In this document: in pieces, positions 3,051-48,814 of the stretch
How positions within the stretch are numbered: the first letter of the stretch is position 1
Layout: every line of letters starts with the position of its first letter
Sequence record: PZ386964.1
Origin: a phage
Reading direction: 5' to 3' (one strand)
DNA length: 64,000 bases
The notes under the pieces: generated by a model
The model's input: the letters and a program-made list of their open reading frames with translations, nothing else
Databases searched by the model: none
What the model was told of the DNA's origin: nothing
Program-made: the position numbers and the translations under genes

Positions 3051-3085
3051 GGTAAATAAAAGAAAAGCCGGAAATTTCCGGCTTT
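3051..3085 (-). terminator. Rho-independent terminator ending the ligase / MazG / spanin transcription unit
   Basis: Palindrome GCCGGAAATTTCCGGC (3067-3082) followed on the minus strand by TTTTCTTTTATTT. Confidence 0.65.
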
Positions 3086-5250: not shown

Positions 5251-5279
5251 ATAAATAAAAGGCCGCCAATCGGCAGCCT
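5251..5279 (-). terminator. Terminator-like hairpin between the SSB-like gene and Rz
   Basis: Minus-strand RNA GGCUGCC-GAUU-GGCGGCC followed by UUUUAUUUAU. Confidence 0.5.
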
Positions 5280-5297
5280 TGTTGATTTGATTGTCGA

Positions 5298-6158
5298 TTA
5301 AAACTCTTCTGCGTCGGTCGGAGTTTCATTAACAGGGCCAGCGGCACCGCTTGCTTCTTCCTGCTTGCTGCGGTCAATGTTAACGTTGCCGCCAACTACA
5401 TCGTTGTGGAATGCTTTGGCGACTTCATACAGACCTTTGTCCTGCACCAGACCTTCCAGCTCAAACTTCAGAACTGACCAGGTGTTGCCATCTTTGGACT
5501 GAGACGCAGTACCCATGCGAACGATGTTCATGAAGGTCGGCGGAGTTTTCAGGCCCTGCGGAGTCTGAACTTTCTTCTGCTGCAGCGCGGTCATCAGCAT
5601 GCGAGACGGCTTGATCATGGAAGAAGTCAGAGACAGCATTGCGCTACCAAATTCACCAGTTTCTTCGTTCAACAGAATCACGAAGTGGTTACGTGTATCT
5701 GCGTAGTAAGGTGATTTCTTCTCGTGCACCTTGCCGTTCTCGTCTGGCACAAACACCTTACCGTTGATTTCAACAGCGCGGCCTGCTGCGACTTCTGCAT
5801 CAACGTGCTCTTTGGTGAATTCACCTTTAAAGCCTTTATCGTCGGACTCGCGACCGCCCCAAAGGATGAAGGTGCGTTTGAATGCGCAGGGGATGATCTG
5901 CACACCTTTCTTGCCGTCATACAATTCACCAGTAACGGTGTTGTACAACATGCCAGCTTTTGCGCCAGGAACGTGTTTTGGATCATCTTCGTCGACCATC
6001 GGAGACATCTTTTGCAGCACGACGATAAAAGGAATGGCATAAGCGTCGGCATCGGCACCTTCAAAGCCAGCGCCAAAATCGGTCATGTCGACAAAATCAG
6101 CCATAGCGGACATCTGGGTGTTTTTCACTGCAACTTCGGTAGTTTCTTTCTTAGACAT
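5298..6158 (-). CDS. Putative single-stranded-DNA-binding protein
   Basis: 286 aa ending in an acidic tail with terminal Phe (ETPTDAEEF), reminiscent of T7 gp2.5-type SSBs; sits in the replication block; terminator hairpin downstream. Confidence 0.4.
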   Translation of the reverse strand: MSKKETTEVAVKNTQMSAMADFVDMTDFGAGFEGADADAYAIPFIVVLQKMSPMVDEDDPKHVPGAKAGMLYNTVTGELYDGKKGVQIIPCAFKRTFILWGGRESDDKGFKGEFTKEHVDAEVAAGRAVEINGKVFVPDENGKVHEKKSPYYADTRNHFVILLNEETGEFGSAMLSLTSSMIKPSRMLMTALQQKKVQTPQGLKTPPTFMNIVRMGTASQSKDGNTWSVLKFELEGLVQDKGLYEVAKAFHNDVVGGNVNIDRSKQEEASGAAGPVNETPTDAEEF

Positions 6159-6217
6159 TTGATGTTTTCCTATAGTATCAAGTTTCGTGGCAACCTGATT
6201 TCAAGATAAAGGTTAAA

Positions 6218-6775
6218 TTACTTTTTGCTTTTAGGCAAGGTTATTTTAGCTTCTTTATACTCAAAAACGCTAATATCTTCACTAACTGGATTACCCGCTT
6301 CCAGCTGTTCTTTTACAAATGACTTCAGTGTAGCAGAATGAATGCCTTGTTTCAACGTGGCTTCAACACCATCTTCACGCAGCGCGGCAACAATCTCTTG
6401 CGCTTGCTCGATTTCTTCGCGACCGAACTCAGCCGTGACGCTGGACTTGATCAAGCCGCCGTAACCGTTGTTGACAAGCCAATCGAATACCTTCAATTCA
6501 TTTTCTTTCTTGATTGAAGCATTTACTTTTGACTCGACCTTGATTTTGGTCTTGTCTTCAAGCTTGATTTCGGACACGCCAAGCTCATCCATAACGCCAG
6601 GAAGCAGAACAGTTTTGATTTCACTGATGCGCTGCTTTTGCATATCAGCTTCATCTTCAAGCTCTGTCAAAGCTTCTTGGCGCTCTGCCAATTCCGATAC
6701 TAAGCGCGCAAGACGCTCCTGAATGCTCTCAGGAGCAACCTGCGGCAAATCATCTTCCCAATTAATATTGCTCAT
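6218..6775 (-). CDS. Hypothetical protein with N-terminal coiled coil
   Basis: 185-aa ORF coupled to the upstream gene; charged coiled-coil N-terminus; no confident family assignment. Confidence 0.5.
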   Translation of the reverse strand: MSNINWEDDLPQVAPESIQERLARLVSELAERQEALTELEDEADMQKQRISEIKTVLLPGVMDELGVSEIKLEDKTKIKVESKVNASIKKENELKVFDWLVNNGYGGLIKSSVTAEFGREEIEQAQEIVAALREDGVEATLKQGIHSATLKSFVKEQLEAGNPVSEDISVFEYKEAKITLPKSKK

Positions 6776-7035
6776 ATTTTACCTTCTTGCATTAGCCCTT
6801 CAACACGGGTCATTTGATAACGTTCAGGTTTCCAAGCCGCCAAAGCCTTCTCAGCGCCTTTTAAAGTCTTATATGCCTTGATGCCAGGCATAATGACGGT
6901 ATTCACCCCAGCACCGTTGCCATAATCAAACTCTTTTACAACGCGGAACATGCCGTCAATTTCTTTGACCAAAAGACGTTTGAACGCGATTGCGCCAGTA
7001 GCTTCATTTTTGTAACGTTCAAGGATGCGTACCAT
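6772..7035 (-). CDS. Hypothetical protein
   Basis: 87-aa ORF with an upstream sigma70-like promoter (TTGACT, 17 bp, CATAAT) and AGAGGA ribosome-binding site. Confidence 0.5.
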   Translation of the reverse strand: MVRILERYKNEATGAIAFKRLLVKEIDGMFRVVKEFDYGNGAGVNTVIMPGIKAYKTLKGAEKALAAWKPERYQMTRVEGLMQEGKI

Positions 7036-7067
7036 TTTGTATTCCTCTATTTCGTTTCGATGAAGTA

Positions 7068-7096
7068 ATTATGACTCATCTTCCGTGACAAGTCAA
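7068..7096 (-). promoter_or_regulatory. Sigma70-like promoter with conserved leader motif (upstream of the 6772-7035 gene)
   Basis: Minus strand: -35 TTGACT (plus 7091-7096), 17-bp spacer, -10 CATAAT (plus 7068-7073); leader contains CATCGAAACGAA, shared with the promoter near 14.0 kb. Confidence 0.45.
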
Positions 7097-7111
7097 ATTA
7101 TTTTTTTGATA

Positions 7112-8635
7112 TTAATTCATCTTTTTGCCGTCGAGGATGTGATCAGCAAGCATTGACTTCATACTGAGTGAACGCTGAATTTCTTCGTCGATGGTATCAA
7201 CACCAATAAAATCAACATACAACACGCTTGATTTGGTGCCGATGCGGTGATTTCGGTCTTCGGATTGTTTGCGCAGCTCGTTGTCGTAGTTGCAAGAATA
7301 ATAAATTGCCAAGTCAGCGGCGGTAAGCGTGATTCCGATGCCTGCCGCGGCTGCGTGACACACCAACACTTGCGTTCCACCGTTCTCGACTGTGTTTTTC
7401 TGGAAGTCATCAATCAAGAACTCGCGCTGCTCTTTTGATGTTTCACCGTTGTACACACCAGTGACCACGCCTTCAGACTCAAGCCAGTCCTTAATCTGGT
7501 TCATCTCTTCCTTAAAGATGGCCCAAACAATGAATTTGCGCTCTGGGTCGTCTTCCAGCACCCCTTCCACATAATCCTTAAAGGCTGTGAATCGTGGGTT
7601 GTCTTCCATGTAGACCATCTCATCATACACCTTAACAAAGCCTGATGTCACCTGCTTCATCTTGGTGCGAGATGCGATCATCTCAAACTTAACGTTTTCT
7701 TCTTCGCCTTTATACTCCATCAGATAATTGTACTCATTCTTGAGTTCATCATAGACATCGCGCTGCTTAGGCGACAACTCGAAGTCGATAAACTTGTACA
7801 CCTTCTCTGGAAGGTCCGGCAGGTATTCCGCTTTTGTCGCGCGGAAATAGTGCGGCTCCATCAGCCGGATAAGCTTGTCAAGGTTTTTGTACATCGGTCG
7901 GCCAAACTGGTCTTTGCGCGGCACTTGCGGAATGCCATAACCGTTGCCGCCGATTTTCTTGAGAATGGCCTGCATCTCTGGGTCGTGCGCTTCAAGCAGC
8001 ACTGTAAATTCAGAGTTAAATGCGCGGAACGATTTGGTGCCAAGCAAACCTGCTTCAAGGAAGTGATACTGCATGTAAATATCAGCAGGCGAGCGCGGCA
8101 GCGGCGTACCGGAAAGGATTCGACGGGCCTTTGCCAGCCGTCCCAATTCCACAACCTTGATGGAGCGTTTGGCTGTGTTATTTTTGATACGCGTCGATTC
8201 ATCAATGATCATCAAACAGCGGTACTTCTTCAGTACGGACTCAATGTGTTGATAACCGACTGGCGTGTTCACCGTGTCAATGTTGAATGAGAAGATTCGT
8301 GCAGGCACTTCGCCTTCAGGATAGTGATCAGCAAACATCTTCTCCCAAAGTGCCTTGCCCTTTTTAGTTTTCATTTTGTCATTGCCGCGCCAGTAATGAC
8401 CAATCCATTTAATGGAAAGGTGCTCTGGTGCTTCACGACGAATCCAGTTTGAGTGTACACCGTTAGGAGCGATTACAACCATGGCATCAAATGCGCCAGC
8501 GGTAAAATGCTTTTCAAACTCTGCCAAAGCGGTCCAGGTTTTGCCAAGACCCTGCTCCATGAAATAAGCAAAGTATTTTCTGCGGCCTGCTTTATCAAGC
8601 GCCAATAATTGGTGGCGCATTCCTTGTGTTTTCAT
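7112..8635 (-). CDS. SNF2-family DNA helicase / ATPase
   Basis: Walker A GLGKT, DExx box IIDEST, and a C-terminal helicase domain pattern. Confidence 0.8.
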   Translation of the reverse strand: MKTQGMRHQLLALDKAGRRKYFAYFMEQGLGKTWTALAEFEKHFTAGAFDAMVVIAPNGVHSNWIRREAPEHLSIKWIGHYWRGNDKMKTKKGKALWEKMFADHYPEGEVPARIFSFNIDTVNTPVGYQHIESVLKKYRCLMIIDESTRIKNNTAKRSIKVVELGRLAKARRILSGTPLPRSPADIYMQYHFLEAGLLGTKSFRAFNSEFTVLLEAHDPEMQAILKKIGGNGYGIPQVPRKDQFGRPMYKNLDKLIRLMEPHYFRATKAEYLPDLPEKVYKFIDFELSPKQRDVYDELKNEYNYLMEYKGEEENVKFEMIASRTKMKQVTSGFVKVYDEMVYMEDNPRFTAFKDYVEGVLEDDPERKFIVWAIFKEEMNQIKDWLESEGVVTGVYNGETSKEQREFLIDDFQKNTVENGGTQVLVCHAAAAGIGITLTAADLAIYYSCNYDNELRKQSEDRNHRIGTKSSVLYVDFIGVDTIDEEIQRSLSMKSMLADHILDGKKMN

Positions 8636-9054
8636 GACAATTCCTCTAAATACTTGATGATGTGATGAATAGTTCCCTTCACGATTATCTCACGTTGAAC
8701 GTCTGCAGTATTATAACGCTTTAATTCAATAGAAGGGTGGACTAAATAAAACATCTTCTCAGAATCAACCTTAAGCAGAACAAATGATGGGTATTTCCAA
8801 TCATTCCACGAAGAAAGAAAGCTGCATTGACCTTTCTCAAATGCATTTCTGAAAGGTGCAGTGGTGACCCTTGCAGGCCACGATTCAAAGAACTTCATTT
8901 CAAGCCAAAAGCCGCGCCCTTTCCGGTTGGTGCCGATTACGTCCGGCACGCCATCACCAGTCATCGACTCGATTCGTTGAAGCTTCAATACTGACTCTGA
9001 ATGCTTCTTTAAAGGTACGAATATGTATTTCTGCTCACGGTTATTTGTTGCCAT
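8632..9054 (-). CDS. VRR-NUC-like nuclease (PD-(D/E)xK fold)
   Basis: GVPDVIG and WLEMKF motifs consistent with VRR-NUC; immediately downstream of the SNF2 helicase, a common pairing. Confidence 0.55.
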   Translation of the reverse strand: MATNNREQKYIFVPLKKHSESVLKLQRIESMTGDGVPDVIGTNRKGRGFWLEMKFFESWPARVTTAPFRNAFEKGQCSFLSSWNDWKYPSFVLLKVDSEKMFYLVHPSIELKRYNTADVQREIIVKGTIHHIIKYLEELS

Positions 9055-11938
9055 CTGGATACACCTGTTTGATAACGTCGACTATGAACATGTCAATGCC
9101 TTCAAGCTTGCGACCTTTCATCAGGAAGAATGCGCCGTTCCCGACGTTTTCAGCAATGTATTTCCCGTACTTCTGGAACTTTTCTGGACGAATCCTGAAG
9201 CGCATTGGCGAGTCGGTCGAGTCGTCTTTGCACATAAGGTCGATGAACTGAGTCTCAAGCTTGTTTCCGTACTGGTCAAACTCTGCGTAGCGGCCATCAG
9301 CTTGAAGACCTTTTTTAAGCTTGCCGTGCTTTGTATAGATGCCGCGCTCAAGTCGTTTACGGATGCGTGTCGCTTCGTTCTCGTCTGCAAGCACTTTCTT
9401 TGTCAACTTGCCGATTACTATTGCACGCTCGTCATCACCGACTTCCTTCATCTGGCGTATTGAAGCGCCGGACGTCACGCCAATAAGATAAGGGTCATTA
9501 TACGCCCAGCCAAACTTTGTGTGCATCTCTGTAAGGTCGCCGTATTTGACTTCAGCATTGGCCAATGCATCCTTTTGCTTTTGCGTTAAGGTTCCGGCTT
9601 CACGTGCTTCGATATACTTCATCGCCTTCACCATTCCGTATCCTTTCGCGTTCATGATGCCGCCGATTAGCTTTCCGTTCGCGATGGTCCAGTTCATCGA
9701 AGAGTGATCAGGGTCGATTGGCACATAATCCACGCCTTCTTTCGCAAGTTCACGTAGTATCGCAATCGTCTGGTCTTCGTCCTTAGCAGCGCGTAAGCAG
9801 GCAGCGGCAAATTCCAACGGGTAGTGTCGCTTAAGCCACAAAGTCCAGTAGGTCACGACCGCGTATGACACGGAGTGTGACTTGTTAAAGCCCCATGACC
9901 CGAACGTGGCCATCGCTTGCCAAAGCTTTCTTGCATCCGCTTCCGGTACACCGTTATTTATTGCTCCTGCAACGAAGTCTTCGCCAAGCTTGTTAAAGTA
10001 TTCTTCACCCTTACGGCCTGACATCGCCTTACGTACAGCGGACGTTTTCGCCCAGTCAAATGAACCAATCTCTTTAACCACGGCCATGATTTGCTCTTGG
10101 TAAAGAAACACGCCGTAAGTCTCTTTTAAGTACGGCTCAAGCTGCGGCACGTCGTATTCAATCGGCGCACGCCCTGCCGCGCGTTCAATGTATTTCTGGG
10201 CCATACCGGACGACAACGGGCCAGGTCGACCCAAAGCTGTCAGGTTGTCGATTTTGTTAAAGTTATCGACGTGAACAAAGTTTGTTACTGAGCGTACAGC
10301 ATCACCTTCAAACTGGAAGATGCCTGACATCTTGTTTTCGTTAAGAATGTCAAGGACGCTTTGATCATCAAGCTTGATTCCGTAGAGCGTTTCAGCATCA
10401 ATAACGCCTGTATCAGAAATAATGCCGAGAGTACGAAGGCCCAGCGCATCAAGCTTCAAAAGGTTTAGGTATTCGCTGTCAGGCTTATCGATTTGCGCAA
10501 TCCCTTCTGCAGTTACAGTACAGTAATCAGAGATTGGGTCATTACACACAATGATTCCCGCTGCGTGAACACCTGTGTGAGACGGGTGAATCTCAAGGTC
10601 ACCCATGCAACGCGCGGCGTCAGGATATTTCGCCACGAACTCTTGACCCGTGGTCGTTGTTGCAAAGGTATCCTCCAGGCCGTGACCATAACGGGCGTCA
10701 CCGGATGAGTATTCAAGCAGTGCGTTTTTAATGTTGGCTGTTTCGTGGTATCCAATGTTGAACTTCTTACCAACTTGAGCCATTACTGAGTTGGCCTTAA
10801 GCGTGTTGATGTTGCCAAGCTTTGCAACGTTCATTTCGCCGTATTTCTCTTTAAGATAATCAAACACCATATAGCGTTTGGTATCTTCAAAGTCGATGTC
10901 GATGTCAGGAAGGTCGGCGCGGCTTACGTCAATGAATCTGGCAAACAGCAGCTTATACGGGATTGGGTCCACTTCCGTGATGCCGAGGCAATAGCAAACA
11001 AGTGAACCGGCTGATGAGCCGCGCGCAGGACCGACGAGCATTTTTGTTTTTGCGAATCGTACAAGGTCCGCTACTACCAGAAAGTATGAGTCGAAATCTT
11101 TCAGCTGAATCTGGTGAATTTCTTCGTTGAAGCGGTCCTCATATTCCTGAGTCCATTCTTTGATGTGACCTGCTTTTAGACGGTACTCCATCCCCTCACG
11201 CGCAAGCTTTACCATGTCACCAGCAAGGTGAATAATCGGTGCCTTACGCAATTTCAGGTCAAGTCCGACTATGCCGTTTGCTATGTCAACAGCATTGGCC
11301 GTTGCCTGATTGAGCTCATCTTCAGTCAAGATGCCTTTAAGCTGTTTGCGCAAGTCTTCCGCGTCAACGATGCAGTGCGGCTTGACCGTGTCGCGCACTT
11401 CCCAAGCATAAGCGAAGTCAACGTGCTCAGGAGAAGGCATGTGATTGTATCCGGTTAAAACCAGCGGCCTTCCACTGCTACGATGAGCCAATGCCTGGCG
11501 CTTTGCCAAAAGGAACGACGATGGGTTGACGTCTATATAGTCGTAGTCCTCTGGCCGCAGCAACTCCACAGCACCGCCACAGAATTTAACGACGCCATCG
11601 AGCGCACCGAACTCTGAACGGGTAAGTCCACCGCGCTGCGTTGCAAGTGTTGTAGCATTGTAAAAAGATTTTAAGTCAAGGGCCAATATCCAAGCCTTCG
11701 GTTTGAATCCCTTTTTAGGGTCCGCATCAGGGTCGATGATTGGAATCTCCATCCCAAACATAGGCTTAATATCATTTTTCTGGCATTCCTTTTCCCAGCG
11801 AACGTGACCCCATGTATTGTTATCAACTAATGCCGCGACTTCGCAACCCAACTCTTTGAGCCGTGCTATAATTTCAGGATGCCGTCCATATACTTCTTTG
11901 AACGTGTAACCGCTGCGAACTCTCAATTGTGGAAACAT
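9041..11938 (-). CDS. dnaE: DNA polymerase III alpha subunit-like replicative polymerase (DnaE type)
   Basis: 965 aa; N-terminal PHP-like region and the motif GSSAGSLVCYCLGITEVDP matching the DnaE signature. Confidence 0.85.
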   Translation of the reverse strand: MFPQLRVRSGYTFKEVYGRHPEIIARLKELGCEVAALVDNNTWGHVRWEKECQKNDIKPMFGMEIPIIDPDADPKKGFKPKAWILALDLKSFYNATTLATQRGGLTRSEFGALDGVVKFCGGAVELLRPEDYDYIDVNPSSFLLAKRQALAHRSSGRPLVLTGYNHMPSPEHVDFAYAWEVRDTVKPHCIVDAEDLRKQLKGILTEDELNQATANAVDIANGIVGLDLKLRKAPIIHLAGDMVKLAREGMEYRLKAGHIKEWTQEYEDRFNEEIHQIQLKDFDSYFLVVADLVRFAKTKMLVGPARGSSAGSLVCYCLGITEVDPIPYKLLFARFIDVSRADLPDIDIDFEDTKRYMVFDYLKEKYGEMNVAKLGNINTLKANSVMAQVGKKFNIGYHETANIKNALLEYSSGDARYGHGLEDTFATTTTGQEFVAKYPDAARCMGDLEIHPSHTGVHAAGIIVCNDPISDYCTVTAEGIAQIDKPDSEYLNLLKLDALGLRTLGIISDTGVIDAETLYGIKLDDQSVLDILNENKMSGIFQFEGDAVRSVTNFVHVDNFNKIDNLTALGRPGPLSSGMAQKYIERAAGRAPIEYDVPQLEPYLKETYGVFLYQEQIMAVVKEIGSFDWAKTSAVRKAMSGRKGEEYFNKLGEDFVAGAINNGVPEADARKLWQAMATFGSWGFNKSHSVSYAVVTYWTLWLKRHYPLEFAAACLRAAKDEDQTIAILRELAKEGVDYVPIDPDHSSMNWTIANGKLIGGIMNAKGYGMVKAMKYIEAREAGTLTQKQKDALANAEVKYGDLTEMHTKFGWAYNDPYLIGVTSGASIRQMKEVGDDERAIVIGKLTKKVLADENEATRIRKRLERGIYTKHGKLKKGLQADGRYAEFDQYGNKLETQFIDLMCKDDSTDSPMRFRIRPEKFQKYGKYIAENVGNGAFFLMKGRKLEGIDMFIVDVIKQVYPDGNK

Positions 11939-12480
11939 TATTTACTCCATATGTCATATACGCCAATTTGCTGGCAGACTTTGTGCAGTAATATTACGTC
12001 GTCTAATGCACGGTGCTTCTGTTCATATTTTCCGAAATATAATTCATACAACTCTTGAAGCTTAACTCTTCGACCAAAAATAGGCAAGGTTTGCTCGACC
12101 GTACAAATGTTTATATCTGGAAATGATACATCACTTAATGTAAGTCCTTCGCGCTGTAGTGCATAATCAAGAATGTTTTTATCGAACGCATGGTTGTGCG
12201 CGATAGTTGCATCAGTCTTCTTGAAGATTTCTTTTAGCTGCGGGACGAAATTGATGAACGGTGGATTGCACTCAAGGTCTTCATTTGTTAATCCGGTAAT
12301 CTTTGTGATAATTTCTTCAATCACGATTTCAGGATTAATTATGAATTCAAACGTTTCAAGAATCTCTTTGCCGTCTGTCAACAGACCTGCAAATTCAATA
12401 GGGCGCGGCTGCATCCCAAGCGGCGCTTTCGGGTGCACGGTCAATCCGGTTGTTTCGAAGTCATAAGGGAGAAATAACAC
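11938..12480 (-). CDS. dnaQ: 3'-5' proofreading exonuclease, DnaQ/epsilon-like (DEDDh)
   Basis: Exo motifs YDFETTGL, HNHAFD and HRALDDV; immediately upstream of and coupled to dnaE. Confidence 0.8.
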   Translation of the reverse strand: MLFLPYDFETTGLTVHPKAPLGMQPRPIEFAGLLTDGKEILETFEFIINPEIVIEEIITKITGLTNEDLECNPPFINFVPQLKEIFKKTDATIAHNHAFDKNILDYALQREGLTLSDVSFPDINICTVEQTLPIFGRRVKLQELYELYFGKYEQKHRALDDVILLHKVCQQIGVYDIWSK

Positions 12481-12491
12481 ATTAGCCTCCT

Positions 12492-12518
12492 ACAAAAAGG
12501 CCGCCCATTAGGACGGCC
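12492..12518 (-). terminator. Terminator-like hairpin in the leader of the dnaQ-dnaE pair (possible attenuator)
   Basis: Minus-strand RNA GGCCGUCC-UAAU-GGGCGGCC followed by UUUUUGU, ending only ~10 nt before the AGGAGG site of dnaQ. Confidence 0.45.
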
Positions 12519-12534
12519 ACAGATTCACGATTCG

Positions 12535-13086
12535 TTATACAGTGTACGGAGTACCGTCTTGATTCAAGCGCACGATGAACTTCAAATCGACGCCGATGAT
12601 ATCGCGCGTGTCAAAGATCACGTAATTGTAGCGACGTTGACCAGCAATGTTTGGATTGGTGTGGGAGTCGGTGATGACTTCCTGCGCAACCTGAATGCCT
12701 TCTTCGCTAAAGAACTTACGCCATTCAGCAAGTTCAGCGGCAGTTACGTGCATGCCAAGATGGCTAACCTGATTGTCGTGTGCATCGATATATTCGATGT
12801 TTTCGTTGATCCAGTTGCAGCCCATTGTGTAGTCAAGGATTTCAAGCTCAAGAGGCTTACCAGCGTCGCCATCAGTACCATTGCCAGCCTGATAGTTGAA
12901 GCGCAAGTCAGCTTCATTGGTGCAATCGTCGCGACGACCTTTAAAGTCATCAGCTTCAAATACGCGACCAGTAGCAACAACATGATCATGGAACCATTCT
13001 GTCAGGCCGATTTTAGCCAAGAAATCCTGTGCGCGCTGAGCATCTGGAATTGACAGGGCGATTTGTTCAATTTTAAAATGTGGCAT
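12535..13086 (-). CDS. Hypothetical protein, possibly glyoxalase/VOC-fold
   Basis: 183-aa ORF; weak resemblance to the VOC superfamily (HLGMHV); assignment tentative. Confidence 0.4.
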   Translation of the reverse strand: MPHFKIEQIALSIPDAQRAQDFLAKIGLTEWFHDHVVATGRVFEADDFKGRRDDCTNEADLRFNYQAGNGTDGDAGKPLELEILDYTMGCNWINENIEYIDAHDNQVSHLGMHVTAAELAEWRKFFSEEGIQVAQEVITDSHTNPNIAGQRRYNYVIFDTRDIIGVDLKFIVRLNQDGTPYTV

Positions 13087-13106
13087 TTTGTTTCCTTAAT
13101 TAAATA

Positions 13107-13277
13107 TTATTGATTAATTACTGTGTTGCCTTCGATGGAATAAGTCTCAATGGAACCGACGCGCTCGTGGTTAATCTTTGCGTTTTCGATTCTTATTACT
13201 TCAAATCCAACGCCTTCTTGATCAATCTTCACTTCTGCCACGTCGCCAATCACTTCTACAACAACTTTGATAGTCAT
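13107..13277 (-). CDS. Small hypothetical protein (56 aa), absent from the ORF track
   Basis: ATG-initiated minus-strand ORF (MTIKVVVEVIGDVAEV...) filling the gap between two genes. Confidence 0.3.
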   Translation of the reverse strand: MTIKVVVEVIGDVAEVKIDQEGVGFEVIRIENAKINHERVGSIETYSIEGNTVINQ

Positions 13278-13280
13278 GAT

Positions 13281-13964
13281 TTATTTCCCAAATGGAATAT
13301 CAGTACCAGACATAAAGCGCCATGCGCCCGTAATTAAGATATGGCGAATGAAGTCAGCAATTACTTGCGGCTCAGTTTCCAATCCATTCATCAACGCCTT
13401 TTTCTGGTATTCAGCAGCATACTCAGGAGTCCAGCCGCGAGTCGCGCAAACAGCATCTTCAATCTGTTTGGACATGCCAGTACCGCGTAGCTTGTTAGGA
13501 CTAATAGAGAATACCGTGATCCCGTATTTAGGCGTAAGCTCGTGAGCCATCTGCTTGCTAATCATGAGCGCAGCAGCCTTGGAAGCATTATAACACAAGC
13601 TGGACGTCATAGGAATATGCGCAGCGTTGGAAACGATATTGATCACAAAACCTTTGTTGTCAATAAGACTTTTCAGCGCGGCCTGAGTCGTGTTGACGAA
13701 AGAGAAGGCGTTGGTGTGCATAACGCGATTGAACTCTTCGTAGTTAACATCTTCGAACCAGTTGTTGGAGTTGACGCCAGCGCAGTTGATCAAGCCTTCT
13801 ACATCATATGGGCTTAAAATTTCTTTCATCTGTTTAGCGTCGCGGACGTCATATCCGTATGCTGAATCGATGCCAAGCACGTTATGACCGTAAGCGCCAA
13901 GGGTGTCGAAAATAGATTTACCAAGACCGGAATTGGAACCTGTTACAACAATTACTTTTTTCAT
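13281..13964 (-). CDS. Short-chain dehydrogenase/reductase (SDR) family oxidoreductase
   Basis: N-terminal VTGSNSGLG (TGxxxGxG) and catalytic YNASK (YxxxK) motifs; own promoter upstream. Confidence 0.75.
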   Translation of the reverse strand: MKKVIVVTGSNSGLGKSIFDTLGAYGHNVLGIDSAYGYDVRDAKQMKEILSPYDVEGLINCAGVNSNNWFEDVNYEEFNRVMHTNAFSFVNTTQAALKSLIDNKGFVINIVSNAAHIPMTSSLCYNASKAAALMISKQMAHELTPKYGITVFSISPNKLRGTGMSKQIEDAVCATRGWTPEYAAEYQKKALMNGLETEPQVIADFIRHILITGAWRFMSGTDIPFGK

Positions 13965-14000
13965 TTATTTATCCTTTTTGGACTTCGTTTCGATGAGATA

Positions 14001-14029
14001 AATATAACTCATCGAAACGCACAAGTAAA
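14001..14029 (-). promoter_or_regulatory. Sigma70-like promoter with conserved leader motif and inverted repeat across the -10 (upstream of the SDR gene)
   Basis: Minus strand: -35 TTTACT (plus 14024-14029), 17-bp spacer, -10 TATATT (plus 14001-14006); 12-bp inverted repeat CGTTTCGATGAG / CTCATCGAAACG flanks the -10. Confidence 0.45.
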
Positions 14030-14902
14030 CTATTTATTGAAATTAATATTATGGGTGTTAACAAGACGTTCACACATGGCGCTGTAAACACCATCATCGT
14101 GTATAGAGTCTTCGTGCTTCAGGCCGCTGATTGCAAAGCGTGTAAGCTTGACAATCTTAAGCTCGAACAGATGCCACATGTGGTAGTCTTCCGGCGTTTT
14201 CAACGTTACTCCATTAGGGAAAAGCACCTGCATAACCTGGCCAACCATCACGGCGTTATCGCCATAGACAGCGTTGCGCTCACGGAAGGTTGCTGCCATT
14301 GCATCAAGAATATCGGCGGCAGTTGCCGGAGATTGTTCAACTTTCACAGCCTTAGTCTCTTCTTGCCCTGTTGCACTTGGATCAATTGCTAATTGTTGCA
14401 CCACTTCACCTGCCTTGCAAAGATTAAATGTAAAAGCGATTTTATTTTGAGCAACGGAATTATAATACAATGCTTCATCTTGCATCCGCGCGAGTACGTC
14501 TTGTCGGTCGTCGAATACGTTGATGATTCGATAATCGCCGTGCCGCAATGCGTGCGATAGCCATGCAGATTTCATAATAGTTGATGGACGTTTGTCGCCA
14601 TAGTCTCTCATCTTGATTGTAAATTCATCAAAAGGAAAAACATTGTCCAGACGTTCAAAAGTCGCTTGTCTGTATTTTTCTGGCCTTGCAGTCCAATATT
14701 CAACCGCCTCACCGCGAAGAGATGCCGACTCTACTGCTGATGCAATGTGAGGATAGAACTGATCATAACCAATACCGCTGTGATAGTCATCATAGTCTGA
14801 CAACGGACCTGCCACCTTGATGCGGTCTAAGCGCCAACGGTCATCAAACAGCGTTCCGTCAAGGTCGAATACGTTTAAGATTTCGCTGTTTTTAATACTC
14901 AT
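14030..14902 (-). CDS. HAD-superfamily phosphatase fused to a C-terminal alpha-helical domain (possibly NTP-pyrophosphatase-like)
   Basis: N-terminal FDLDGTL and later VFDDRQD motifs; C-terminal ~140 aa with paired acidic helices (FELKIVKL, HEDSIHDDG). Confidence 0.55.
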   Translation of the reverse strand: MSIKNSEILNVFDLDGTLFDDRWRLDRIKVAGPLSDYDDYHSGIGYDQFYPHIASAVESASLRGEAVEYWTARPEKYRQATFERLDNVFPFDEFTIKMRDYGDKRPSTIMKSAWLSHALRHGDYRIINVFDDRQDVLARMQDEALYYNSVAQNKIAFTFNLCKAGEVVQQLAIDPSATGQEETKAVKVEQSPATAADILDAMAATFRERNAVYGDNAVMVGQVMQVLFPNGVTLKTPEDYHMWHLFELKIVKLTRFAISGLKHEDSIHDDGVYSAMCERLVNTHNINFNK

Positions 14903-15729
14903 CCTTTTGATACTCCATCTTTAGCAACTGGATTGTTGGTGATTGGCATCGCACTCCAAAACTGGATGCGCAACTCTTCTTGCTGTGCCGTTGTATCCAT
15001 CCAATCACGATACCAAGGGCAATGGGCTTTGCCATGACGAGGAAACGCGCATTTACCCATACCGATGCATTGCGGCTGTAATAATGGATTTGCCCACGGG
15101 TGCACCTTGAGGACTTCCGCAACCATTGCGCGGAATACTTCTTGATACTCGCCTTGAGTGCGCGTGCACAAGCGGTTTGACGCCATCTGCTGCAGCGTGC
15201 GCAAGTTGAACTTTGCCATGATATGCGTTTGCATATTAGAAGGCAACACGGCACGTGCATCTTGAATCTCTGCACCAGCCGCGCGAAGTTCTTGATACAA
15301 AGCATCGATAGTCGCCATCGCATCATCCCACTTCTCTGCTAAGTATTGCTTTTGAAGTAAAGATTGGTGCTCTTCATCAGTCCCAAATGCTTCACATTGA
15401 TCAATCAACTCTGGATTTTGGTGTGAGAATGCCTTCGGACGAATCGCATCAAATGCAGACGACTCCTGAGCGCGGCTGGTGCGTTCTTGATATGCGCCTG
15501 TGCGTGTGCGTACCATCTGATGGGTCATGTTCTTTGATACAGCTGTGATATCAAAGATATAGTCCACAAAGTCAAAAGGAGACTTGATTGTATCAAGCAT
15601 GTAGCGCCAATGCTCTTGCTTCTCTGATTCCGTCATCTCAGAGACAGGCTTACCAGTCATGCGCGTGTTCTTTGTTTCCAGCAAAAGGTCAAGTGCATCT
15701 TGGGTGTATCGAATTAATTCAACTTTCAT
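14899..15729 (-). CDS. thyX: Flavin-dependent thymidylate synthase (ThyX)-like protein with a divergent motif
   Basis: Segments THQMVRTRTGAYQERTSR and ARAVLPSNMQTHIMAKFNLRTL align to ThyX motifs (THELIRHRH...SQRY; ARAVLPNATETR), but RHR is replaced by RTR; Cys/His-rich C-terminal extension. Confidence 0.6.
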   Translation of the reverse strand: MKVELIRYTQDALDLLLETKNTRMTGKPVSEMTESEKQEHWRYMLDTIKSPFDFVDYIFDITAVSKNMTHQMVRTRTGAYQERTSRAQESSAFDAIRPKAFSHQNPELIDQCEAFGTDEEHQSLLQKQYLAEKWDDAMATIDALYQELRAAGAEIQDARAVLPSNMQTHIMAKFNLRTLQQMASNRLCTRTQGEYQEVFRAMVAEVLKVHPWANPLLQPQCIGMGKCAFPRHGKAHCPWYRDWMDTTAQQEELRIQFWSAMPITNNPVAKDGVSKG

Positions 15730-15742
15730 TTTAATTGTCCTA

Positions 15743-16189
15743 TTAACGGTAATTCACTAGTTGCTGATCACCAGAGAAGGTGCAATGATAAACGAATTGT
15801 GCGTTATAAAGCAACTGAAAACTTTTCTTTGGTTCACTATTAGAACTCATTGATGTAAAGATTTCTGCACCAGAACGGTTTTCACCAATCAGATTGATAA
15901 AGCCGCCAGTTGAACGAGGCTGGACGAAAGTGAAACGTTGCATCCACGGAGTACGGTTGGCACCTTTCCCTGTGAATCCCTGAATCTGAATATTCAAACC
16001 TTCTTGCTCATTCACACCGATGTAAGTGGTAATCTTCGCACCAGTCGTTGCTGCGGTCTTACCGTCCATCGCTTCGCAATCATAAACAGCGATTGAATCG
16101 GAAGTGCGGATGGCAGCTTCAGTCGCTTCCATATACATGGTGCCGAGAATAGCAGTTGCGGCAAGCGTGATTCCAGTGATTCGTTTCAT
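15743..16189 (-). CDS. Putative secreted protein (signal peptide), unknown function
   Basis: Hydrophobic N-terminus MKRITGITLAATAILG; two cysteines in the predicted mature part; embedded between enzyme genes. Confidence 0.5.
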   Translation of the reverse strand: MKRITGITLAATAILGTMYMEATEAAIRTSDSIAVYDCEAMDGKTAATTGAKITTYIGVNEQEGLNIQIQGFTGKGANRTPWMQRFTFVQPRSTGGFINLIGENRSGAEIFTSMSSNSEPKKSFQLLYNAQFVYHCTFSGDQQLVNYR

Positions 16190-16254
16190 TTTCGTTTCCT
16201 CTATGAGTTCTGCTTCAATGATTAAAGTATACGCCCATTGAAGCAGAAAGCAAA

Positions 16255-17250
16255 TTATTTATTAGCAATATAAGCAAATTTTTGATAGTTATTTGCTTTG
16301 ATGAGTTTTTCAACTTCAACAAGGTCATGAGCGACGTCATCAAGCAAAATGTTGCGCCAGGTAGCAAATCGACCGACACTAAACACGTTCAAATCCATGG
16401 TCAGCTGCAGGAGTAGGGCGTGTCGCAAGTCTTTCGGAATGTCGACAATCTTGCCATATTTCTGGTCGACCTTTTCAACTTCTTCAAGAGCGATGTCGCT
16501 CCATGAGAGGCCAAATGCCGTCAGCACTTCGTCAACTTCTGCGCGCAACTTGATGTCACGGTAACGAGTGATGCCGCCAGCGGCTTCAACTGCAGCTTCA
16601 CTTACGCTGACCAAAGGAATTGTTTCAATGATAAGCGTGTCACCAGTAATTGATGCGCGGTAAGTTCTGACGGAGTAGTCAGGGAAGTAAATTGTCTGAT
16701 ACAAATCACACTTACGTTTAATCTTAAAGCGGTAAACGCGAATGTTTGCTTTATCAAATGAGAAATCAAGCTTTTGATCAATTCCAGCAAGCTTCATCAT
16801 GACTGGCAGCGGCGACGTGTTGATGATTGGCGTCTCGCTATAGCCGCAAAGAGTATCAACCGGAGTATTAAAGAATATGCGGTCACCCAGTTTGTCGACA
16901 AGCTGATCATAAAAGTCATCAGGTGCAATATAACGCGTTGCAGTTTTAAGCTTCATGATTGAACGACTGCCAAACTGATTGGTGACCTTCATGGAATACA
17001 TATTGGCAAGGTTGATTGGGCAATGGTCGTGATAGTAGTTGCCGCGAAAATACACAGCCTTGTCAACTGTCACGGCCTTAAAGGGGATTCCGGTAATACG
17101 GCTTACTTCTTCGCCGCGAAAGCGTAGCAGCGCCTTGTGCTGTTGCGCTCGTTCCCCTGCTTCGTACACAATAGAGTTCGGGAAGTGACACGCGGTGATA
17201 AGTCCTGCCAGTCCGCCGCCGATAATCATTACAGGTTGTTTCATGTTCAT
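16255..17250 (-). CDS. FAD/NAD(P)-binding oxidoreductase
   Basis: N-terminal dinucleotide-binding motif VMIIGGGLAGL; ~331 aa; specific family not resolvable by eye. Confidence 0.6.
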   Translation of the reverse strand: MNMKQPVMIIGGGLAGLITACHFPNSIVYEAGERAQQHKALLRFRGEEVSRITGIPFKAVTVDKAVYFRGNYYHDHCPINLANMYSMKVTNQFGSRSIMKLKTATRYIAPDDFYDQLVDKLGDRIFFNTPVDTLCGYSETPIINTSPLPVMMKLAGIDQKLDFSFDKANIRVYRFKIKRKCDLYQTIYFPDYSVRTYRASITGDTLIIETIPLVSVSEAAVEAAGGITRYRDIKLRAEVDEVLTAFGLSWSDIALEEVEKVDQKYGKIVDIPKDLRHALLLQLTMDLNVFSVGRFATWRNILLDDVAHDLVEVEKLIKANNYQKFAYIANK

Positions 17251-17327
17251 TTGTCCTTTGTGGGTGATATGAGAAGTATAATAGCTAAATTATTTTACAG
17301 CAACAAGTCATTTCTATTTAGTACAGA

Positions 17328-17357
17328 CGAAAAAAAGACCCACAACAAGTGTGGGTC
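17328..17357 (-). terminator. Rho-independent terminator after the KEA-rich protein gene
   Basis: Minus-strand hairpin GACCCACA-loop-UGUGGGUC followed by a run of seven U. Confidence 0.65.
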
Positions 17358-17385
17358 AATTACCGCTATATAACCGTCCTACAGG

Positions 17386-18231
17386 TTATTCCGCTTGATC
17401 ACCGTCTTCGGCATCGTCGTTGGATTCAACATCGACAAACTCGATGTGGCCCATCTCTTCCAGCTTGCTCAGGTAGGAGCGAACGGAAGCGCCAAACAGT
17501 TGATCTTTAACTTTCTCTCCCAGCTCATCGATAGACTGCGCCACGCCAACTTCGCCTTCTTTGATCGCCGCCAGAACGCGCCCACGGGTGGAGTGCTCTT
17601 GCGGCTGGCTCAGGCCATTGCCAGTGTAGATGAAGTGAGTAGCTTTTGCACGACGCTGACCGTTTGCCTTTTTAGCAGCCTTGCGCTCTGCGATGGCTTT
17701 GCGACGTTCTTCAGCTTCTTTCTTACGCTGTTCTTTCTGCTGTTCTGCAGCTTCTTTCGCCGCAATCTTAGCAGCTTCACGCTCTGCCTTGCGTTTCGCT
17801 TTAGCTTCTTCTTTGGCCTTCTCTTTTTCGGCCTTCGCTGCAGCACGGGCCTGATCACGTTCGGCCTTTTTCGCCGCAGCTTGTTCAGCTTTCAGGCGCT
17901 TGGCTTCTTCTTTCGCCTTTGCCTTTTCAATTTCTTTAGCGGCTTTAGCGGCTTCACGCTCTGCCTTCTTAGCGGCAGCCTTTTCTGCACGCTCTTTAGC
18001 TTTCTTAGCTGCTTCTTCAGCACGCTTCTGAGCCTTCTCATCAGCAGCTTGCTTGCGTTTCAGCGCAGCTTCTTCACGCTTGGCTTGTTTTTCCTGCTCA
18101 CGCTTCTGGCGTTTTTCTTCGGCTTCTTTCTTTTTAGCCAGGCGTTTTTCTTCAGCCACGCGACGACGTTCTGCTGCGGCTGCTTGTTTTTCTTCTTTAG
18201 ATAATACTTTGATTGCTTCGGCCATATTCAC
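17386..18231 (-). CDS. Lysine/alanine/glutamate-rich low-complexity protein with C-terminal globular (possibly winged-helix) domain
   Basis: ~200 aa of KEA repeats (AAKKAEREAAKAAKEIEKAKAKEEAK) followed by ...VRSYLSKLEEMGHIEFVD and an acidic tail; terminator downstream. Confidence 0.55.
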   Translation of the reverse strand: MNMAEAIKVLSKEEKQAAAAERRRVAEEKRLAKKKEAEEKRQKREQEKQAKREEAALKRKQAADEKAQKRAEEAAKKAKERAEKAAAKKAEREAAKAAKEIEKAKAKEEAKRLKAEQAAAKKAERDQARAAAKAEKEKAKEEAKAKRKAEREAAKIAAKEAAEQQKEQRKKEAEERRKAIAERKAAKKANGQRRAKATHFIYTGNGLSQPQEHSTRGRVLAAIKEGEVGVAQSIDELGEKVKDQLFGASVRSYLSKLEEMGHIEFVDVESNDDAEDGDQAE

Positions 18232-18384
18232 AGTCCTTAAATAAATTAGTTTATTTTATATTCCCCGTTTGGGATAACTTAATTATGCCTTCAGTTGCCG
18301 CCAGTAGCAACTAAAAACTATGGCGGCAATGCCACTTTAATTAAACTGATTTTCAGTTTTATTTTTCGTAAATTTACGTCAACA

Positions 18385-19569
18385 TTAACGCGCTTTCAAA
18401 TCACGGTACACGGTCAGATTCTTCTTAGCACGGGTGATAGCGGTGTACATCATCTTGGAGTACGGAACGCCGCGCAAGATTTCTTCCAGCACGCACACAT
18501 TGTCCCACTCGCTGCCTTGCGATTTGTGCACCGTGATGACATAGCCATAGTCCATGCCTCCAACAGCGCGTTGCGCTTCTTTGCGCACTTCCTGATCAGT
18601 AGAGAAGGAAAGAGGATTGATCTTCACCTTTATATCTTTACCATCAGTTAATGAACGTAAGTTGACATACATTATTTCATTCGACTCATCTTCATCCCTT
18701 TCAAAGTCCGGCACTGGCTCATAGCTAATAACAATCCCTTGCTCGCCATTACAGAATCCTGGCCCGTGTTGGTTGAAGGTGCAAATAACCTTCTCACCGA
18801 TTCCTGGCATTGGCGTTATACGTCCGCTCACTTGCCGTAATAATGAATTCCATTTATCTTTGGTGCTATTATAGGAGCAAATAATTTGATCATCTTCGCC
18901 CATGAATTTCTTCAACGCAGTAACGCGCGGCGATTCTGCCAATACTTTGACGTCATCGTATTCACGCGGAGGAAGTCGGTTGCCTTGGCGCACGAAGAAG
19001 GAGGCACGGATGATGTTGGACTCTTTCCCTTGCCGCATGATTTCTGTTAACAGAACGTCAACGGCATCTTCAGTAAAGTAGGCGGCGGCTTTTACCGGAG
19101 GGACTTGTCCAATGTCGCCTAATGCCAGCACAGGGATGCGGTGATCAAGAAGGCGCTCTGTGTCCCACTCGCCAACCATCGACGCTTCATCGAGTACAAC
19201 AAGGTGCGGCCTTTCATCCAGCTTTGACTTTCTCGAAAAGATTGGCTCATTGTCGTCATTTACGCCGCGCACGTTATAGATGAACTGGTGAAGGGTCTTA
19301 GCGCCACGACAGCCTTTTTGCTTTAATCGGCTTGCAGCCTTTCCGGTCGGCGCAATATAGATAGCGCCGTACTCACCGACACAGCGACGCACAATCTCGC
19401 GAGCAATAGAGGTTTTACCAGTCCCTGCATAGCCAGCAATGAAAAACACACGCTTCGTCGTTTTACCGTCCTGCAATCGCTTGTACCATGCAACGGCCTT
19501 CTCGATGGCATTGATTTGTTGCGCGTTAAACTGAATCACTGGCTCATCATTAAATTCTGGAATGTTCAT
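18385..19569 (-). CDS. Superfamily 1 DNA helicase, Dda/RecD-like
   Basis: Walker A GYAGTGKT, Walker B VLDEASMV, C-terminal motif ITVHKSQGSEWD. Confidence 0.8.
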   Translation of the reverse strand: MNIPEFNDEPVIQFNAQQINAIEKAVAWYKRLQDGKTTKRVFFIAGYAGTGKTSIAREIVRRCVGEYGAIYIAPTGKAASRLKQKGCRGAKTLHQFIYNVRGVNDDNEPIFSRKSKLDERPHLVVLDEASMVGEWDTERLLDHRIPVLALGDIGQVPPVKAAAYFTEDAVDVLLTEIMRQGKESNIIRASFFVRQGNRLPPREYDDVKVLAESPRVTALKKFMGEDDQIICSYNSTKDKWNSLLRQVSGRITPMPGIGEKVICTFNQHGPGFCNGEQGIVISYEPVPDFERDEDESNEIMYVNLRSLTDGKDIKVKINPLSFSTDQEVRKEAQRAVGGMDYGYVITVHKSQGSEWDNVCVLEEILRGVPYSKMMYTAITRAKKNLTVYRDLKAR

Positions 19570-21138: not shown

Positions 21139-21139
21139 T

Positions 21140-21168
21140 TTGCTTTTATTTTCATAGCAACTATAATC
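21140..21168 (+). promoter_or_regulatory. Sigma70-like promoter
   Basis: -35 TTGCTT (21140-21145), 17-bp spacer, -10 TATAAT (21163-21168). Confidence 0.45.
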
Positions 21169-21196
21169 ATTTTATGAACTGAAGCAGAGGTGATTC

Positions 21197-27254: not shown

Positions 27255-27297
27255 GGTGAGCTAAATGCTTGCCTTTTCTTTTATCAATACTTATACT
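27255..27297 (+). promoter_or_regulatory. Terminator-promoter cassette, copy 1
   Basis: Hairpin GGUGAGC-UAAAU-GCUUGCC (two G-U pairs) plus U-run, overlapping a promoter: -35 TTGCCT (27269-27274), 17 bp, -10 TATACT (27292-27297). Confidence 0.5.
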
Positions 27298-27329
27298 CTT
27301 TTCATCAAGACGAACAAGTGAGGTGAATT

Positions 27330-34933: not shown

Positions 34934-35002
34934 TTTAAACTCCTAGTTGGGAGAGGCGTTAACGACCTATTCGTTAACTCATCCCGTCCCGATATGAGTA
35001 CA

Positions 35003-35029
35003 TTATAATATAGTGTAGAAAAAAGTAAA
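35003..35029 (-). promoter_or_regulatory. Possible minus-strand promoter for acidic paralog A (divergent from the 35157 gene promoter)
   Basis: Minus strand: -35 TTTACT (plus 35024-35029) within an inverted copy of the AAAGTGCTTTACT element; -10 TATAAT (plus 35003-35008) at a short 15-bp spacing. Confidence 0.3.
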
Positions 35030-35072
35030 GCACTTTTTCGATAAAAATGAGATAAATTATTTTATCTTTTTC

Positions 35073-35100
35073 TTTACTTCTTCGTACACTCGCATATACT
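35073..35100 (+). promoter_or_regulatory. Sigma70-like promoter for the 35157-35459 gene
   Basis: -35 TTTACT (35073-35078), 16-bp spacer, -10 TATACT (35095-35100); shares TTTACTTCTTCGTACACT with the next promoter. Confidence 0.5.
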
Positions 35101-35459: not shown

Positions 35460-35470
35460 CGAAAAAGTGC

Positions 35471-35499
35471 TTTACTTCTTCGTACACTAAGACTATAAT
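35471..35499 (+). promoter_or_regulatory. Sigma70-like promoter for acidic paralog B
   Basis: -35 TTTACT (35471-35476), 17-bp spacer, -10 TATAAT (35494-35499). Confidence 0.55.
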
Positions 35500-35567
35500 G
35501 TTTTATATCGAGAGGGGGATGAGGTAGCGAATAGGTCGCTACCCTCCCGACCAACTAGGAGATTATT

Positions 35568-35858: not shown

Positions 35859-35878
35859 TACCCTTCCGTTATTAATAG

Positions 35879-35903
35879 GCCGCGCTTAGTCGCGGCTTTT
35901 CTT
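35879..35903 (+). terminator. Rho-independent terminator after acidic paralog B
   Basis: Hairpin GCCGCG-CTTAGT-CGCGGC followed by TTTTCTT. Confidence 0.6.
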
Positions 35904-35905
35904 CG

Positions 35906-43954: not shown

Positions 43955-44049
43955 TTCAATCTCCTTTCGTTTGGTTAACTAAAATATAACTCAAAATGAT
44001 ACAAAAGCAAAATATTTTATGAACTATTTATGATTACTATACATATCAT

Positions 44050-48723: not shown

Positions 48724-48785
48724 TATCACACTAATTAAGTCGCGGCTATATCGGTTGTTATACATATTCAAACCATAATTATTGT

Positions 48786-48814
48786 TTGCCTAAGTTTTTT
48801 TCATTAGATATAAT
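48786..48814 (+). promoter_or_regulatory. Sigma70-like promoter for the head-gene operon
   Basis: -35 TTGCCT (48786-48791), 17-bp spacer, -10 TATAAT (48809-48814), just downstream of iteron locus B. Confidence 0.55.

Follow-up and report, generated by a model that had tools for sequence, protein, structure and literature searches.

The 64,000-nucleotide stretch of DNA analyzed here (sequence record PZ386964.1; hereafter the window) belongs to a Wifcevirus phage, shows 95.5-97.7% identity to myophages of that genus that infect E. coli and Shigella (WFH, FEC19, ECML-117, vB_Eco4M-7 and Bas98-101), and represents nearly the whole of a genome of ~68 kb. Going by Bas100, a well-annotated relative, the minus-strand genes between ~19.9 kb and 2.2 kb form a block dedicated to replication and nucleotide metabolism, which encodes a Dda-like helicase, ThyX, a polynucleotide kinase/phosphatase, a FabG-like reductase, DNA polymerase and its exonuclease subunit, as well as two helicases, spanins, MazG and a ligase. 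Three short gaps between genes of this block, here called P7.0, P14.0 and P16.2 after their positions in kb, probably contain internal promoters of the replication and nucleotide-metabolism operon, and two of them carry a perfect inverted repeat overlaid on the predicted promoter. Because a phage RNA polymerase or sigma factor is annotated nowhere in the Bas100 record, transcription should rely on the host sigma-70 enzyme. Promoters at the three sites are annotated neither in the public records examined nor in the literature.

The P14.0 cassette occupies the gap between the polynucleotide kinase/phosphatase and FabG-like reductase genes (13965-14029, minus strand), and its minus-strand sequence is TTTACTtgtgCGTTTCGATGAGtTATATTtatCTCATCGAAACGAAgtccaaaaaggataaataaATG. 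A -35 hexamer TTTACT (14029-14024) is followed after a 17-nt spacer by the -10 hexamer TATATT (14006-14001), which is abutted by GATGAGT. The leader string CATCGAAACGAA begins 5 nt after the -10 hexamer (13995-13984), with a predicted start at the A at 13994 and, further downstream, a Shine-Dalgarno sequence and the ATG at 13964. Superimposed on these elements is an inverted repeat spanning 13986-14019, with CGTTTCGATGAG as its 5′ arm (14019-14008) and CTCATCGAAACG as its 3′ arm (13997-13986). The original prediction described a 12-bp repeat straddling the -10 box at this site, and the repeat is indeed perfect over 12 bp, with the -10 hexamer held in a 10-nt loop. The predicted folding energy is -18.7 kcal/mol as RNA (z -6.8) and -12.7 kcal/mol as DNA. 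If transcription is assumed to start at the A of CAT, the 3′ arm corresponds to approximately -3 to +9 of the predicted transcript, and therefore the hairpin would form only in RNA that reads through from upstream.

P7.0 lies between the genes for a UvsW-like helicase and an 87-amino-acid open reading frame (ORF) (7036-7111, minus strand; aataaTTGACTtgtcacggaaGATGAGTCATAATtactTCATCGAAACGAAatagaggaatacaaaATG). Its -35 hexamer TTGACT (7096-7091) is separated by 17 nt from the -10 hexamer CATAAT (7073-7068), and GATGAGT (7080-7074) again abuts the latter. The same leader CATCGAAACGAA begins 5 nt after the -10 hexamer (7062-7051), placing the predicted start at the A at 7061, and is followed by a Shine-Dalgarno sequence and then by the ATG at 7035. 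A block CGTTTCGATGA(A/G)...CTCATC and the leader string had been proposed as common to the 7.0- and 14.0-kb regions; both are present at both sites, and the 12-nt leader occurs exactly twice in the window. The inverted repeat is degenerate at P7.0, where GATGA/TCATC alone is left. The sole hairpin available (7100-7066) is weak, with the -35 side pairing with GATGAGTCA.TAATT by means of two G·U pairs (z -1.8 to -2.1). The presence of the leader at P7.0, where the hairpin is unconvincing, shows that shared block and hairpin can be separated, and the leader may play a role independent of the latter. Among the genes that P7.0 would drive, those at 5298-6775 (minus strand) encode homologues of the gp33-like (DUF7307, E 6e-37) and gp34-like (E 4e-86) proteins of cyanophage Pam3, both of which are named only as hypothetical in Wifcevirus records.

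Both sites of the original prediction hold up, but a third was overlooked. P16.2 fills the gap between a 331-amino-acid ORF and a 148-amino-acid ORF (16190-16254, minus strand) and has the anatomy TTTGCT-tt-CTGCTTCAATG-ggcg-TATACT-ttaat-CATTGAAGCAG. The -35 hexamer TTTGCT (16254-16249) and the -10 hexamer TATACT (16231-16226) are again 17 nt apart, CAT lies 5 nt after the -10 hexamer, the predicted start is the A at 16219, and the cassette is followed by a Shine-Dalgarno sequence and an ATG. Here a perfect 13-bp repeat is formed by TTCTGCTTCAATG (16248-16236) and CATTGAAGCAGAA (16220-16208), with a 15-nt loop that holds the -10 hexamer, and the hairpin is predicted to fold as RNA with -18.4 kcal/mol (z -6.75).

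Looser relatives of these cassettes were found at other promoter-like sites in the window. P44.0 (43966-44011, minus strand) consists of TTTGCT (44011-44006), 17 nt and TATATT (43988-43983) without a hairpin, and has GAGT-TATATT-T and an in-register AAACGAA (43972-43966) in common with P14.0 and P7.0. P27.3 (27269-27314, plus strand), with TTGCCT, 17 nt and TATACT (27292-27297), likewise lacks a hairpin; from 5 nt after its -10 hexamer it carries CATCAAGACGAA (27303-27314), which is identical to the leader string at 10 of 12 positions. AAACGAA occurs exactly 10 nt after the -10 hexamer at three promoters. The question of whether the motif recurs at other promoters, on which the original prediction was to be judged, thus has a divided answer: partial, in-register versions are present at 43966-43972, 27303-27314 and 16208-16220, but the exact 12-mer is restricted to P7.0 and P14.0 and to Wifcevirus genomes.

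At P18.3 (18282-18329, minus strand), with TTGCTA at 18310-18305 and CATAAT at 18287-18282, a 9-bp repeat formed by TTGCCGCCA (18329-18321) and TGGCGGCAA (18303-18295) straddles the -35 hexamer. Downstream of the primase gene, an internal promoter of the form TTTGCT-17-TATAAT (21139-21196, plus strand) can form a two-tier hairpin, in which TTCATAG/TTATGAA encloses the -10 hexamer and the -35 sequence TTTGCTTT pairs with the leader GAAGCAGA through G·U. The latter string is also the 3′ arm of P16.2, although the fold at 21139-21196 is not significant alone (z ~ -1.1 to -1.5).

The likeness of P7.0 and P14.0 was evaluated by an all-against-all comparison of 40 non-coding regions with shuffled sets. 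Their shared 13-mer alone is within chance, as the longest words shared within shuffled sets measured 11-15 nt. However, when 13 promoter-like sites were aligned by their hexamers and the hexamers were left out of the count, P7.0 and P14.0 matched at 31 of 46 in-register positions, compared to a mean of 16.1 (standard deviation 4.5), and ranked at the top of all 78 pairs (Bonferroni-corrected p ~6e-4). The non-randomness of this pair therefore rests on register rather than on the shared word. The in-register leader pattern itself was drawn up with the data already in view and so does not provide independent evidence.

The loose pattern TT[GT][AGC]C[TAC], 16-18 nt, [TCG]AT[AT][ACT]T matches the window 36 times, and 18 of these matches lie in non-coding DNA, which makes up 9.4% of the window. 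P7.0 and P14.0 both fit it and are the most similar promoter pair in the window, in agreement with the claim that the two regions have a shared promoter-leader architecture. The reading of these sites as promoters is well supported as a prediction from sequence. Only three perfect inverted repeats with arms of 11 bp or longer and a loop of 3-20 nt occur in the window, compared to 0.27 expected, and two of the three are those of P14.0 and P16.2.

When the segment from -40 to +15 of each of the 13 sites was folded, P14.0 (z -5.4) and P16.2 (z -5.0) stood apart from P7.0 (z -2.1) and from the rest (-1.5 to +1.4). Both sites with a significant hairpin are internal to the operon and have no terminator upstream. 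At 17.3 and 3.0 kb, where the other internal promoters lie, the gaps are longer and a distinct canonical terminator directly precedes the promoter, and promoters at the heads of operons lack hairpins. Because P14.0 and P16.2 lie in a co-directional operon without an upstream terminator, they must be read through by RNA begun further up. This distribution is consistent with a stem-loop directed at read-through RNA and superimposed on the promoter in gaps that offer no more than 65 nt.

Comparison with more distant phages places the P14.0 cassette in an evolutionary context. Within IMG/VR, GATGAGT-N10-TCATCGAAACGAA is found only in the four Wifcevirus contigs, at two sites in each; at P7.0 and P14.0, TCATCGAAACGAA is placed so that CAT falls 5 nt after the -10 hexamer. 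In more distant phages (L008-L013) the kinase/phosphatase gene directly adjoins or overlaps the FabG-like gene and the promoter is missing, suggesting that the 65-nt cassette is an insertion into a conserved gene order. Serratia MTx-like phages have a 70-nt gap with the promoter TTGACT-gcaGGCCAaggaTGGCC-GATAAT and a homologous leader (…AACGAAGTACAGAAAAGGA), and a small GC stem-loop lies within the spacer instead of the 12-bp repeat (L006 and L140). Another relative (L142) has TTCTCA-GGGCAAcggaTTGCCCt-TATAAT, also with a small GC-rich stem-loop in the spacer. An overlaid stem-loop appears to recur in the group, with neither its sequence nor its position conserved.

Scans of viral contigs and metagenomes with the FabG-like protein yielded no diverged orthologue of the hairpin. 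They gave one further Wifcevirus contig, and the other relatives either have no intergenic region or are on contigs that end before it. Published transcriptome work on 14-1, a distant relative, reports promoters of a sigma-70-like type and CTGGG as a second motif, but no palindromes of this kind.

Taken together, the sequence anatomy, the statistics, the conservation across the genus and the pairing-preserving changes described below lead us to infer promoter activity, the start sites and a role for the hairpins. The window appears to contain three to five related promoters of the sigma-70 type, two of them wrapped in perfect hairpins with the -10 hexamer in the loop. We consider it somewhat better than an even proposition that these are composite cassettes of a promoter and an RNA stem-loop, the latter acting on read-through transcripts.

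Each short intergenic gap would serve as an internal promoter for the host sigma-70 RNA polymerase. The proposed layout begins with an A/T-rich tract that includes the stop codon of the upstream gene, followed by a -35 hexamer TTKRCT, 17 nt, a -10 hexamer YATAWT, 5 nt and CAT, where transcription would probably start; it would end with a leader rich in purines, a Shine-Dalgarno sequence and ATG. P7.0 and P14.0, and more loosely P44.0, P27.3 and P16.2, would form a sub-family with common bases flanking the -10 hexamer and at the beginning of the transcript, which may have arisen by copying of one cassette.

The spacers of P14.0 and P16.2 are perfect complements of the bases predicted to be transcribed first, such that read-through RNA would form a hairpin of 12-14 bp with the -10 sequence in its loop. 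RNA started internally would carry only part of the 3′ arm and would stay unstructured. The hairpin could attenuate the read-through RNA, serve as a site of cleavage or shield the upstream message at its 3′ end. Neighboring transcription units would in this way be insulated from each other while the promoter restarts expression. We divide the probable roles of the hairpin roughly in half between a 3′-end stabilizer or processing site and an attenuator.

Action as a canonical terminator is unlikely for lack of a U-tract. The stems are followed by AAGUCC at P14.0 and CUCAUA at P16.2, and the possibility that these hairpins are intrinsic terminators was rejected on this basis and because a terminator scan is silent there; the scan reports 12499-12518, 17337-17357, 5259-5280 and 3064-3085, and neither hairpin. 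A search of the whole window against Rfam produced no match at the gathering score, and within 6900-18500 only two chance-level hits, both elsewhere.

The two perfect stems were compared with respect to whether they suit RNA pairing or a protein-binding site. Aligned from their inner ends, P14.0 and P16.2 have 7 of 10 pairs in common, and the other three differ on both sides (G-C versus A-U, U-A versus C-G and C-G versus U-A). The loop is 10 nt long at P14.0 and 15 nt at P16.2, and the distance of the upstream arm from the hexamers differs by 1 nt.

If the repeats were operators, a dimeric regulator from phage or host would bind the palindrome over the -10 hexamer, through a core TTCRATG...CATYGAA, and shut or time the promoters. 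A palindrome overlapping the -10 hexamer is classical operator geometry, the TTCRATG/CATYGAA core is common to P14.0 and P16.2, P7.0 keeps the downstream half-site, and all three sites belong to one functional gene module. However, the arms are perfect over 12-13 bp, and the positions that differ between sites remain complementary, which a protein would not need. In addition, the spacing of the shared core is off by 1 nt, the loops differ in length, and P7.0 lacks the outer upstream half.

The supply of sites and proteins also fails to favor an operator. The half-site CATYGAARC is not enriched in the window (7 matches versus 4.25 expected) and has no further copies at other promoters, and scans with Pfam and PHROGs found no helix-turn-helix or other DNA-binding domain in 40 hypothetical ORFs, although this is weak negative evidence. 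Together with natural variants that break DNA symmetry yet keep G·U pairing (see below), these points make the operator explanation unlikely.

Variation was examined across 29 Wifcevirus records. The arms of P14.0 are invariant save for one C to T change in Bas99 and another in Bas101, each of which converts G-C into G·U on the sense strand and gives A·C on the antisense strand. In SP13 and F13, a G to T change just outside the P14.0 stem adds a thirteenth pair, U-A. The loop positions of P14.0 are variable (T/C, and TATCTT in TH35). The arms of P16.2 are invariant in 28 records, and the five changes that TH35 carries elsewhere in this gap are all outside the arms. At P18.3, an alignment of 10 genomes shows one pair as U·G in seven of them, U-A in two and C-G in the last, although an alternative fold is also compatible with these changes. 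Of the five substitutions in stems, four preserve pairing, and they do so solely on the sense strand (p 0.003-0.045, by the neutral expectation used).

The original prediction had left the choice between a repressor operator and an RNA processing stem. The RNA stem is favored by the perfect repeat of different sequence and loop at 16.2 kb and by the G·U variants, whereas the operator has become the less likely half of that proposal. Within the RNA alternative, attenuation and 3′-end protection fit as well as processing does.

Several observations weigh against composite cassettes. P7.0 has the shared leader without a convincing hairpin, and two-sided differences such as those between P14.0 and P16.2 are automatic for any two perfect repeats. 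Two-sided changes of a pair are absent among orthologues, the six distinct P14.0 variants amounting to two one-sided changes, and in SA1, an unverified record, a G to T change breaks one pair of P16.2. The genus is 94-98% identical (93.4-96.4% for Wifcevirus relatives over 9.5 kb), and the comparative signal is correspondingly thin. The stem-loop of the MTx relatives is not significant (z -0.37), and we treat it as anecdotal. The absence of a U-tract after either stem counts here as well, as does the fact that the literature holds no transcript mapping for Wifcevirus, the published analysis consisting of prediction programs only. Finally, the terminator activity demonstrated for one stem-loop of a comparable kind in T4-like phages (see below) cannot be assumed for the Wifcevirus hairpins.

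Some of these same observations would be expected if the promoters were real and duplicated but the repeats were functionless, having arisen as neutral by-products, for example of template switching or repair, and having been kept because the genus is young. In genomes this similar, conservation of the intergenic regions is not clearly above that of the adjoining coding sequence. Neutral repeats also accord with the lack of two-sided covariation among orthologues, with P7.0, which presumably functions without a good hairpin, and with the nearest other genus, which has no 12-bp repeat at the same position. What makes this account improbable is the occurrence of two independent perfect repeats of different sequence, each with the -10 hexamer in its loop and both at internal promoters only. 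Moreover, substitutions in the stems are biased toward those that keep pairing, and the TH35 changes avoid the P16.2 arms.

Two further proposals invoke a switch. Folding of the palindrome, either in read-through RNA or as a cruciform driven by the supercoiling that accompanies read-through, could determine the firing of the internal promoter, and so couple two promoters and pass expression on to the next transcription unit without a protein regulator. A very fast growth cycle has been reported for Wifcevirus phages (cited in PMC11990801), and such a coupling switch might be related to it, but we regard the proposal as very unlikely.

A switch purely at the DNA level would depend on a cruciform formed under negative supercoiling, for example in the wake of a polymerase reading through or in the course of replication, which would expose or hide the -10 hexamer as single-stranded DNA and couple internal firing to upstream activity. 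It has the early promoters of phage N4 as precedent for promoters in hairpin form, an A/T-rich loop that contains exactly the -10 hexamer and folds of ~ -12 to -13 kcal/mol (z ~ -8) for either DNA strand. Yet it is the least probable of all, since arms of 12-13 bp with 10-15-nt loops extrude poorly, G·U-type variants would weaken a cruciform by giving G·T in one strand and A·C in the opposite one, and no N4-like phage RNA polymerase is annotated in Bas100.

The composite arrangement of promoter and stem-loop that we favor has a close counterpart in the promoter-early stem-loop (PeSL) cassettes of phages RB49/phi1, PST and nt-1 (Arbiol et al. 2010, PMC2839356; Comeau et al. 2014, PMC4122927). 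In the T4-like phages RB49 and phi1, these are short intergenic elements with a strong sigma-70-like promoter and a stem-loop that mostly lies between the -35 and -10 hexamers or overlaps the latter, with an A/T-rich 5′ tract that includes the upstream stop codon and, at the 3′ end, a Shine-Dalgarno sequence and ATG. In a reporter assay, one of these stem-loops cut downstream lacZ expression as much as the rrnB T1 terminator (PMC2839356).

By sequence, the Wifcevirus cassettes resemble PeSLs on four counts, namely the promoter, the overlaid stem-loop, the A/T-rich 5′ tract and the Shine-Dalgarno sequence with ATG. The tracts directly 5′ of the -35 hexamers at the three sites are AATTAATATCAAAAAAATAAT, TTTCAATAAATAG and CTAATAAATAA. 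As with PeSLs, cassettes within one genome are alike. The layout is one already known from T4-like phages, real but fairly ordinary.

There are differences as well. Wifcevirus, whose distant relatives are Pbunavirus, is an unrelated lineage. It has two to four structured copies in a conserved replication module rather than many in hyperplastic regions of ORFs without known relatives (ORFans), and insertions or deletions bounded by cassettes were not seen in the 18 genomes compared. The stems here are 12-14 bp long and A/U-rich with loops of 10-15 nt, while those of PeSLs are short and of the form G(n)/C(n). The missing U-tract speaks against strong intrinsic termination at the Wifcevirus hairpins.

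Other known elements are similar in part. The RNase III sites of the phage T7 early region (R0.3-R1.3) have longer, two-tier stems with an internal loop, unlike the hairpins here. Both these sites and the repetitive extragenic palindromic (REP) elements that act as 3′ stabilizers resemble the Wifcevirus hairpins in being intergenic, in preceding the next ribosome-binding site, in lying within polycistronic read-through RNA and in lacking a U-tract. By analogy, the hairpins described here could define stable 3′ ends of upstream messages. Intrinsic terminators also place a stable intergenic hairpin in a co-directional operon, but the loops of 10-15 nt and A/U-rich stems seen here set these hairpins apart. 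Palindromic operators at -10 hexamers likewise have a repeat centered on that hexamer, although here the arms are perfect over 12-13 bp while sequence and spacing differ between sites.

Several other features of the window border on the cassettes. The unit that P14.0 would transcribe is closed by a terminator (12499-12518, minus strand) composed of GGCCGTCC-TAAT-GGGCGGCC followed by TTTTT, that is, a GC-rich stem, a tetraloop and a U-tract, and it is annotated as such in the Mansfield and WFH records. Within 12481-12534 (minus strand) the polymerase exonuclease gene follows this terminator directly: its Shine-Dalgarno sequence and ATG come immediately after, and no promoter intervenes. The DNA polymerase genes therefore need read-through, suggesting a leaky terminator that works as an attenuator. 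Downstream of the FabG-like gene (13087-13280), the window and its relatives (L001, L026, L027 and L029) vary in their small ORFs, with none, one or two present, of 56 or 71 amino acids. This region is a local hotspot of insertion and deletion, and its borders are not promoter cassettes.

Elsewhere, promoters at 34934-35099 (minus strand; -10 hexamer at 35002-35007) and 35460-35567 (plus strand; -10 hexamer at 35494-35499) have AAAAAGTGCTTTACTT…TATAATG in common. Their leaders contain a stem-loop with compensatory differences, GTTAAC-GAATAGGTC-GTTAAC in one and GGTAGC-GAATAGGTC-GCTACC in the other. An outer, G/C-rich stem surrounds each of them, and CAACTAGGAG and the start codon come next. 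The exact words of 18-19 nt shared by the two are the longest among all non-coding regions, and the pair looks like a paralogous structured 5′ leader.

Upstream of the gene starting at 48838, a 286-nt non-coding region (48552-48837) contains iterated ATCCGTATC units and the third long repeat of the window, a perfect 13-bp inverted repeat formed by GATACGGATAAAA and TTTTATCCGTATC (48683-48718); it could be an origin, a packaging site or a binding site for a regulator. Another non-coding region, of 385 nt (35859-36243), carries the direct repeat CGCGTAAGTC(C/G)TTGTTTTATA(T/A)AG and several short hairpins.

The arrangement of promoter and stem-loop proposed for P14.0 and P16.2 makes specific predictions, namely start sites at 7061, 13994 and 16219, and two or three stem-loops that mark 3′ ends or cleavage sites. 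It also suggests that the promoter-within-hairpin design of T4-like phages arises in unrelated virulent phages as well. If general, this design would be a way to pack signals for stopping or processing and for restarting into ~65 nt. The gain is incremental rather than conceptual. Wifcevirus phages are candidates for therapy and biocontrol with reportedly unusually fast replication, and compact, host-independent elements of this kind could serve as parts for phage engineering.

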